Source: a virus (lineage: Duplodnaviria; Heunggongvirae; Uroviricota; Caudoviricetes). From it: a DNA stretch of 43,124 bases. Below, one piece after another: positions 18,001-21,000 of this stretch. The stretch's first letter is position 1. Each line of letters begins with the position of its first letter. The stretch is from IMG/VR virus record IMGVR_UViG_2531839664_000026, positions 1 to 43,124 of that record; one strand, 5' to 3'. Made by a program: the position numbers.

Positions 18001-21000
18001 CAATCAGTACATTACTGCTGTGACTCCAACACGGCAGTTTTTTTATTGAACAGATTCCAGTTTCTTCCACCATCGCACCGGATGGGCGACCATGAGGGGA
18101 GAACGCCGCGCTCCGTTTACGCGGTAAACCCCGGTGTGTATCGTTTTTGATTATCCCCGCACACTCTCGCAGAGGAGTCTCCCTGTCGGGCTGCGGTCTC
18201 TGTTAATGCAGGAATACGGCGACAATACCGCGCATGGATAATAAGGTCGCTCAACACACTGGCTGTAATTCAGCGGATACCATTCGGCATTTATCAGTAT
18301 TCATCACGCACTCAACGGTGAATTCTTCATGCGTGGCATTCACTTCATATGTTCGTGAATAACATTCAGTGCATTTACCTCTGAACACCTCTTCAAGCAG
18401 AACACGGCCATGTTGCAAAACACGGAACGGAATTGTTCCCTGAAAAGGTTTTACCGTTACCTGTAATTTCTTCATACATCCTCCGGATAATAAAAAGCCT
18501 GCTTAGTACACTGAGTGCGGATATAGTCCTGTGCCCCTTCCACCTGCTTCTGCATTGTCATCAATCGTTCTCTGAGGATGAAATAATCCCGTTCAGCGGT
18601 GTCTGCCAGTCGGGGGCCGGTTGCATTATCCACGCCGGAGGTGCCGGTGGCTTCACGCACGGTACCGGGGCAGGTGGCGTTGATCCGCAGGCGCTTACGA
18701 CCAGCGGCAACATCAGCGCGCAGAGTTTCATTTTCAGCTCTCGCATCGGCTAATTCCCTCGAGTATCTGGCATCAAGTGCAGCAACATCACGCTGGCGCT
18801 GCTGCATATCAGTAATGGTTGCATTTGCCAGCTCCAGCTCACTGACTTTTTTATCGCGCTGCTCTTTGTAGGTTATGGCGTTATCACGGTAATGATTCAG
18901 CCCCAGACTAAGCGCACCACAGGCCACCAGCAGGGCAATGATGACCACGCACAGTACGCGGTTCATTTCACCACCAGCGTATCTGACCAATGAAATAACC
19001 GGAAGCCATAATCACAAACACCAGCCAGATAAGGATGAACTTCCAGGTGGATAATTTTTCAGCCATCATTCGAATCTCCCGAATCAGTTTGCTAAAATCA
19101 AACACACTTTCTCCTTTGACTTTTCCGGAGTCAGGAAACACAAAACCCCGCTTGCGGCCAACAAACGGGGTTTTACTTTTATTCACTTAGTTTTTGCCAG
19201 TTCGCAGGATTTCGTGTTATCCGCCCGTGTGAGCAAACCGCATTTTTCAGCAAAATATTCTGCTTATCTGTCAATTCCCCAGCACGCCAGCGCGCTCTCC
19301 TGGTCACGCCGTGAGACCTGACCGTAGCAGTTGTTTGAGCGAATACGGCAGTCTCTGCCACCGTCCTTAATCCACCAGCGAATCGCCTCGCATGCTCCCC
19401 TGCGGTCACCAGCATTAATCCGTCTGTAAAACGTCGACGGGAAACACTTACCGGGGCCAATGTTGTACGGACAGAATGACGCAATACCCGCTTTCTGGGG
19501 TTCGGTCAGCGGCACTCTGATATTGCGCTCCACCCACTCCAGCGCCTTATCACGTTCAATGGCGTTAACCTGGTCGCACTTTTCCTTCGACAACTTCATA
19601 CCCGGGACGACAGGTTTACCATCCACCAGGATGGCACCGCGGCAGATGGTCCAGATACCCGCACCATCACGGTATGCCGTGGTGTGGTTACCTTCTTTTT
19701 CGTCAAGAAACTGGTCGAGGATTTCAGGCGCAGACGCCCCTGCACCAATCAGCGCCAGAACGGCAGCCGACAGGCCGTATCTGATTTTTGCGTTCATGGA
19801 TATTTATCAGGGTTTATCGATTTCAAATCCCTGGATATGTTAAGTCTTCAGGCCAGCGGTGGAGTCTTCAGAGAACCAGTAATTATTCCCGGTAGTTTTC
19901 CTCTGTAGGTTATCAACACATCCTGCGCCTCTAAAATGATGGGCCGCTTTTCCGGCAACGGACCATCCCCTTCACATAACCCGGCAGCAACATCCATGAA
20001 AAACTGCTTCGCCTGCTTTTTCGCCTCAGCTTCGTAAAACTCCAGCGTGGCACCTTCAGTACGGTCAAGACTAATCGCCACATCTGGCAACAACAGTGAC
20101 GGATACCCACCAATTTCCAGTGCCACAGTAACAGTAATCTTATCCGGGTAATTATTTATCCCTTTAACACCCAGTTCGTATTTTTTCTTCATCGCTTTAC
20201 TCTCCCCGCGCCGCCTTACGCTTATCTTCTTTAATCTTGAAATAAAGGTTTGTCAGATACGTCAGCAGGCCAAACAGCAGACTCCCCAGCACACCTATCG
20301 CCACCCACTGGGACGGAGAGACTTTGTCCAGCAGCTGCAGTAACCAGTATCCCGTCCCACGCTGACGTGGTGTATGACACACCTGTTGTGTATTTTTTCC
20401 ATCTGATGTATGTCTCCGTCACCGCCGACAGGAAATGAAAGTAAAGAAAAACAAAAAAGCCGCCAGTGTCACCCACTGACGGCCAACGCCGGGAGCCGTG
20501 ATTATGGCATTCAGGCTCTGCTAAAAATGCCAGATAACATTCCGGCCTCCCCTGATTCAGGTTATAAATGACACAATATCTTGACAACATCCGTCACTGT
20601 CTGTCAGAAAATGTACTGCCATATAGAAGCAACATGTGAAGTACATCTATCCTTTTGAGCCAGCACCTCTCCACCGAAAGTCAGTGCTGGCTGTTTTTTT
20701 CCTTAATAAGGCATCTGTAACTGAAACAATCCGCATATTGATAATATATTGACAGGCATCATTGCTGTCTGTGAAAAATAAGTCTCTACAAACTGAGGTG
20801 TACTGGCAATAGCGGACACTACCATTTGTTCTTTTTTTAAGCAGCCATCTGATGATATTTTTCCCTGAAGGCTGCCGGGGAGATATTCCCCAGACGAGAG
20901 TGACGACGCTGACGATTGTAGAAAATCTCAATGTATTCCCGTATTACTGAGATGGCTTCATCCCGGTTATTAAAACGATAGTGGCTCAGGCTCTCATTTT

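Follow-up and report, generated by a model that had tools for sequence, protein, structure and literature searches.

Three-frame pinholin gene in a prophage contig of Escherichia coli O121:H19 strain 5.0959 is probably an artefact of draft assembly

The DNA analysed here (the window, 43,124 nt) carries on its minus strand a lysis gene whose called product, a 61-aa ‘class II holin’, starts at a GTG codon, and the expected N-terminus of this protein lies upstream in two other frames. A sequence-only reading of this locus left three options: a holin reduced to its second transmembrane domain (TMD2), a lysis gene that has been inactivated, or a mis-assembly. We find the third option best supported, by lesions private to one draft, a mosaic of paralogues, indels linked to homopolymers and intact holins in clonal relatives; the TMD2-only form is not supported, and an inactivated gene is not favoured. 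The frameshifts most probably reflect a collapsed-repeat consensus together with homopolymer-type errors in a chimeric draft contig, and not biology (probability about 0.85).

The three-frame layout claimed in that reading is present in the sequence itself, and all three frames were located where they had been placed (Table 1). The frame opened by the native ATG gives a 35-aa out-of-frame product, for which an exact look-up of recorded proteins returned no entry and a Pfam search no match. The second frame contributes a stretch of 16 residues between the start in the ATG frame and the part covered by the GTG ORF, and the GTG ORF (GYWLLQ...KAARGE) is the third. The GGAG upstream of the native ATG is the same motif that is annotated as ribosome-binding site in the phage 434 pinholin. 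The assignment to the phage-21 type was borne out by a match to PF04971 (Bacteriophage P21 holin S, E = 1e-25), in which the 61-aa ORF scored 89.7 bits (cut-off 26) over positions 16-63 of the 64 in the profile, and the repaired 68-aa sequence scored 112.1 bits over positions 1-63. As deposited, the SAR-like N-terminal TMD1 and TMD2 do not share a frame, and they do so once one nucleotide is removed and two are added. Judged by its sequence, the underlying gene is an ordinary intact 68-aa pinholin of phage-21 type, already a known kind.

To define the lesions, the holin region was aligned by nucleotide with three intact 207-nt holins, from E. coli E110019, phage YYZ-2008 and phage 434. Compared with the E110019 holin (WP_000411802, 207 nt), the coding sequence has no substitutions and differs in three indel columns only; with base identity as nearly complete as this, the three-frame layout is not due to chance. 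Relative to intact class II holins of 68 aa, the window thus has three single-base lesions within 35 nt, with a net change of −1 nt. The first is an extra A at 20391, where AAAAAAT-CAC has become AAAAAATACAC. This base had been placed inside the A6 run (20393..20398), and in the alignment it stands beside the run and not in it. Further downstream, GCGGTGGGGAC has become GCGTGGGAC at 20356-20360, immediately 5′ of ACGGGATACTGG. Because no single 2-nt deletion yields that sequence, the second change must be two losses of 1 nt each, one from GG and one from GGGG. Of the ‘two +1 indels’ originally proposed, the upstream one stands as one extra A and the downstream one gives way to two G losses, making three events. 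The frame logic of the proposal was nevertheless right, since a net −2 downstream shifts the frame as a +1 does.

Table 1. Positions of the gene parts, lesions and neighbouring features in the window
Feature	Position	Strand	Remarks
Class II (phage-21 S type) pinholin gene	20197..20402	-	Three frames as written; 68 aa after repair of three indels
35-aa dead-end product from native start, if the sequence is real	20295..20402	-	
61-aa GTG ORF, the gene caller's ‘holin’	20197..20382	-	Lacks first 15 PF04971 profile positions
GGAG Shine–Dalgarno, intact	20414..20417	-	11 nt upstream of native ATG 20402
Extra A (T on the + strand)	20391..20391	-	+ strand GTG[T]ATTTTTT; one base apart from the A6/T6 run 20393-20398
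Two single-G losses, GGTGGGG to GTGGG	20356..20360	-	GG to G and GGGG to GGG
YdfR/DUF1327 gene	19848-20192	-	Downstream of holin
PF00959 lysozyme	19264-19797	-	Gly/Ala-rich N-terminus MNAKIRYGLSAAVLALIGAGASAP
Lysis cassette with consensus alternating between paralogous prophage copies	19100..20440	.	Densest patch 19486-19615
Zone of passage, prophage A late region to prophage B early region	20197..20664	.	
IS600	20794..22055	-	Between SASA esterase gene and holin promoter region; orfA 21691-21993, orfB 20837-21655
SASA esterase gene	22116..23968	-	Two parts (492 + 128 aa), owing to a 1-nt indel at 23649
Seven homopolymer contractions, no substitutions	16142..17225	.	T8 to T7, T6 to T5, T6 to T4, T6 to T4, G6 to G5, T7 to T6 and similar

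None of these lesions is found in finished E. coli genomes. A 331-nt query of the holin region gave 13,891 matching places in 4,813 such genomes, none above 98.5% identity, and this best value covers nine finished genomes of O121:H19 type, in none of which the indels occur. A 46-mer across the extra A and a 44-mer across the G losses each had 0 matches in 5,426 finished E. coli genomes, compared with 7,188 places in 2,420 finished genomes for an intact 45-mer used as positive control. Neither lesion was found in metagenome contigs or in contigs of species-representative genomes. Among IMG/VR viral contigs, the G-loss pattern had 0 matches, the extra-A pattern one (a contig discussed below) and the intact pattern at least 120. 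Moreover, the exact 61-aa product occurs in one contig of the public collection, AEZX02000013.1 (GCA_000194395.2). Repetition of the lesions in independent assemblies or in relatives of the lineage, by which a pseudogene would be recognised, was therefore not seen. The intact 68-aa protein is encoded by 118 of the 123 scorable holin copies among the matches listed for IMG/VR and reference loci; the other five (∼4%) are disrupted, each by private lesions. No intact holin with this N-terminal arrangement, which the sequence-only reading had named as a refutation of itself, was among the hundreds of homologues examined; they encode the holin in one frame.

The window corresponds to nt 1-43,124 of AEZX02000013.1, to which it is 100% identical in the same coordinates. 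This contig belongs to a 2011 draft genome, and AEZX is the JCVI draft of E. coli O121:H19 strain 5.0959 (PMC3359367). Over 2835-16141 (13.3 kb) and 23650-43124 (19.5 kb), the window shows full identity with finished O121:H19 genomes. These genomes contain about ten lambdoid prophages with near-identical lysis cassettes, and the 331-nt holin query has 9-13 places in each finished O121-type genome. Four paralogues were retrieved from O121 genomes, here called A, B, C (0.98 Mb) and D (1.78 Mb). Intact 207-nt class II holins are annotated at both candidate loci, A and B, intact class II holins are present at loci C and D as well, and every holin copy examined in finished O121:H19 genomes is intact.

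The two halves of the window match different prophages. Window 2000-20664 corresponds to the late region of prophage A at 5.05-5.07 Mb of O121:H19 strain 16-9255, and window 20197-43124 to the early region and integrase of the IS600-bearing prophage B, which adjoins yjjG and tRNA-Leu. A and B lie megabases apart in all 8 of the 8 finished O121-type genomes that have a full-length match to both halves. From these separate matches, the contig crosses from A to B exactly within the shared holin segment. Recombination between prophages, large inversions included, is known in Shiga-toxin-producing E. coli; thus the passage from A to B could be genuine in strain 5.0959. A chimeric join through the shared lysis cassette seems the better account of it, and a real inter-prophage recombination or inversion the less likely one.

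Other elements of the contig can be compared with the same finished genomes. IS600 separates the holin from the upstream genes of the late operon; it occupies the same site in finished O121 genomes and is thus genuine. A 162-nt tandem repeat (10424-10956, 3.3 copies, 97% matches) lies inside a gene of the portal region, and is identical in finished 16-9255, where the annotation gives this portal gene a frameshift. At 25141-25373, two prophage-borne tRNA genes lie downstream of the Q antiterminator region, one Arg-tct and one with a CAT anticodon, the latter called Met by ARAGORN and Ile in the finished-genome annotation. The integrase of prophage B is adjoined by a gene for a CHAT-domain protein and a neighbouring hypothetical gene (L006:27941-30072, about window 39640-41775), a pair that may be a cargo or defence module.

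The holin heads a lysis cassette with a predicted SAR-type endolysin and spanins: downstream of it lie the YdfR/DUF1327 gene, the lysozyme gene, whose N-terminus MNAKIRYGLSAAVLALIGAGASAP is an apparent SAR domain, and an Rz-type (Phage_lysis) spanin gene. Window 19100-20800 was set against the O121 copies A, B, C and D column by column. As far as the start codon of the holin, wherever the window departs from A by a substitution (20170 included), it has the base of another paralogue. Upstream of that codon, position 20432 is beyond the column comparison for D, and a separate alignment pairs it with a C in the region where D has diverged. A and D differ at 50 sites; at every one of them the window has either the A or the D state, and it switches between the two 13 times in 1.3 kb, with 8 of the 13 switches inside the densest patch of ∼130 nt. 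This mosaic occurs in no finished genome: the best identity was 98.1% for the lysozyme ORF over 10,727 places, and 95.7% for a 141-nt patch over 4,170 places. Variants of paralogues are thus interleaved in a combination without match in finished genomes, as is to be expected of an artefact. Interleaving over a few to some tens of bases has the look of a consensus drawn from pooled paralogous reads, and real recombination at such a scale is very unlikely.

One of the three holin lesions can be rebuilt from the paralogues themselves. Copy D reads GGTGGG-AA-CGGG and copies A, B and C read GGTGGGG-A-CGGG; by combining G3, as in D (GGGAA), with A1, as in A, B and C (GGGGA), the window reproduces the loss from GGGG to GGG. 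No mixture of the four paralogues compared accounts for the GG to G loss at 20360 or for the extra A at 20391, and the extra A is absent from all four.

For this extra A there is a published form of error. A carry-forward error of pyrosequencing is defined as an inserted base that stands one position before a run of its own kind (PMC2323236), and the holin insertion, read on the + strand as GTG[T]ATTTTTT, fits that definition. The one IMG/VR contig with the same pattern, L007 (IMGVR_UViG_2526164663_000018), has the identical extra A after A6-T within its positions 6400-7800, in a different holin allele. Compared with phage 434, this contig has 11 single-base indels in 2.9 kb, namely the extra A and ten more, most of them in or beside short same-base runs (in one case a G is inserted one base after a GGG run), and they break its SASA, holin and lysozyme genes. 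The recurrence of the extra A in an unrelated allele of so error-laden a contig points to systematic error and not to shared ancestry. We also considered whether L007 comes from the same strain as the window, and treated it as a different prophage, its SASA gene being ∼89% identical and IS600 being absent; the assembly may be common to both.

Two more sites in the window carry indels. About 3 kb from the holin lies a patch in which T or G runs of 6-8 nt are contracted in seven places, with 2 nt lost from each of two T6 runs (indel positions 16142, 16484, 16510, 16526, 17202 and 17225). They split TerL into 14755-16113 and 16110-16415 (452 + 101 aa) and shorten TerS to 16512-16970 (152 aa). These indels are common to no finished genome, the best identity being 99.3%, and in a base-by-base alignment with one genome, 16-9255, every difference is a gap. 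Only 12.6% of the bases at 16142-17225 are in runs of at least 4 nt, so that the probability of all seven events being placed in such runs by chance is p ∼5e-7. The TerL and TerS contractions are most likely the same kind of sequencing error. The indel that splits the SASA gene stands at the edge of a second mosaic patch, 22335-23649, which has ∼85 differences and a 3-nt indel relative to an otherwise identical finished locus; in RM8352 the gene is intact and encodes 616 aa. SASA is thus another multi-copy prophage gene whose consensus is open to doubt.

The contig has probably arisen as follows. The assembler would have piled reads from several near-identical prophage copies into one consensus, and assembly would then have run on through the shared segment, so that late genes of one prophage came to be followed by early genes of another. 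Mixed states and homopolymer-type miscalls would have been left wherever the paralogues disagreed, or coverage and quality were poor; in the holin, one A gained beside the A6 run and two G lost from G runs would have spread the gene over three frames. The collapse of reads and their low quality are read here from the consensus alone, and we infer that a flow-based chemistry of 454 type was used for AEZX02. If the lesions are artefacts, each holin copy of strain 5.0959 would show intact GGTGGGG and AAAAAATCAC. The 61-aa ‘class II holin’, the split TerL and SASA and the apparent hybrid prophage should with due caution not be read as biology, and comparative studies of O121:H19 should not count these features as decay of prophages or inactivation of lysis genes.

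Alternatively, the deposited sequence can be taken as it reads, as a genuine pseudogene private to the strain, in which a recombinant prophage of 5.0959 has a pinholin with three slippage indels. We regard this as unlikely. Homopolymer slippage is the commonest real frameshift mechanism, but here it would have left three indels in 35 nt without one private substitution, between flanks of more than 30 kb identical to clonal relatives. Prophage decay does occur in the lineage, finished O121 genomes having IS insertions, a frameshifted portal gene and a truncated lysozyme, and the few percent of holin copies disrupted in other assemblies make real decay of such genes possible in general; against this, the lesions at issue are missing from the 7,188 matching copies in finished genomes, the fine-scale interleaving of paralogues is likewise seen in none of them, and the nearby second patch repeats the pattern with its seven contractions and no substitutions. 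If the pseudogene were real, the intact GGAG and native ATG would send ribosomes into the dead-end frame, translation would stop after 35 aa, and the prophage would be without a holin, a holin-null phenotype. Lysis would then be slow and unsynchronised, not absent, and would depend wholly on the SAR-type lysozyme being released stochastically; when SAR endolysins act on their own, lysis is slow and gradual (PMC9025707; PMC12642591). One prophage in about ten would then have a null allele of a well-known pinholin, private to the strain, and this would be unremarkable.

In a related and rather improbable version, the recombinant prophage itself is real, with late genes of A joined to early genes of B by an exchange in the lysis cassette, and its pinholin is either knocked out or made as a basic leader plus TMD2. 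If true, this prophage would be a natural test, in a Shiga-toxin-producing lineage, of lysis by a SAR endolysin only or by a truncated pinholin.

The TMD2-only holin proposed from the sequence would be an N-terminally truncated functional pinholin of 61 aa started at GTG 20382, with the aromatic patch GYWLLQLL and TMD2 behind a basic out-of-frame leader, and it might trigger early or act like an antiholin. The idea is not absurd in principle: S21-68 truncated N-terminally up to the aromatic patch still forms pores, TMD2 being described as necessary and sufficient (bioRxiv 10.1101/2021.04.20.440580), and the ORF retains PF04971 profile positions 16-63. Its expression in the window, by our analysis, is not supported, for the 14 nt before the GTG (AAAATACACAACAG) contain no Shine–Dalgarno and the GTG falls within the frame that the native ATG, with its intact ribosome-binding site, would open to translation. 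Moreover, the ORF exists in one draft contig only, and the evidence for an erroneous sequence applies to it equally. We consider this form very improbable.

Programmed recoding, in which two ribosomal frameshifts rebuild the full-length holin, is scarcely credible: the A6 run is indeed close to the first shift, but the hundreds of homologues examined are all single-frame, no slippery or stimulatory element is conserved between the window and any other sequence, and the arrangement is private to one draft. We know of no precedent for two frameshifts in a row within 35 nt, in a gene of 68 codons. A mismatch-repair-deficient mutator was rejected, as the indels fall in two short patches between more than 30 kb of homopolymer-bearing flanks without any, and two of the events shorten a T6 run by 2 nt.

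Compared with genuine pseudogenes of E. coli prophage lysis genes, the window shows the same type of locus, and prophage B in finished O121 genomes does have a truncated lysozyme and IS insertions; those defects, however, are common to all clonal relatives and are found in finished assemblies, whereas the three indels of the window are not. With drafts that have collapsed repeats, the window shares errors confined to multi-copy prophage segments, error-free flanks of more than 30 kb, and paralogue-specific bases that alternate. Flow-based (454-type) drafts share with the window indels solely at or beside homopolymers and an insertion of carry-forward form (PMC2323236); the loss of a G from a run of only two differs from them, being an unusual place for a flow-space miscall.

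Within the class II family, the window agrees in the spacing of the ribosome-binding site, in the position of the holin at the head of a cassette with lysozyme and spanin, and in the PF04971 match, and it differs in that the first 15 family positions are, as written, in two other frames. A YdfR/DUF1327 gene between holin and lysozyme is also found in many Stx-type prophages. In copy D of 16-9255 (L129:3220-3438, 1.78 Mb), the holin has an in-frame upstream Met (MYQMEKITTG..., 71 aa), which recalls the 71/68 dual start of S21 (antiholin/holin), whereas the window allele has a single start. Among known alleles, the S pinholins of phages 434, 933W and YYZ-2008 come nearest, together with E. coli WP_000411802; once repaired, the window's protein does not differ from WP_000411802 or from the pinholin of phage 434.
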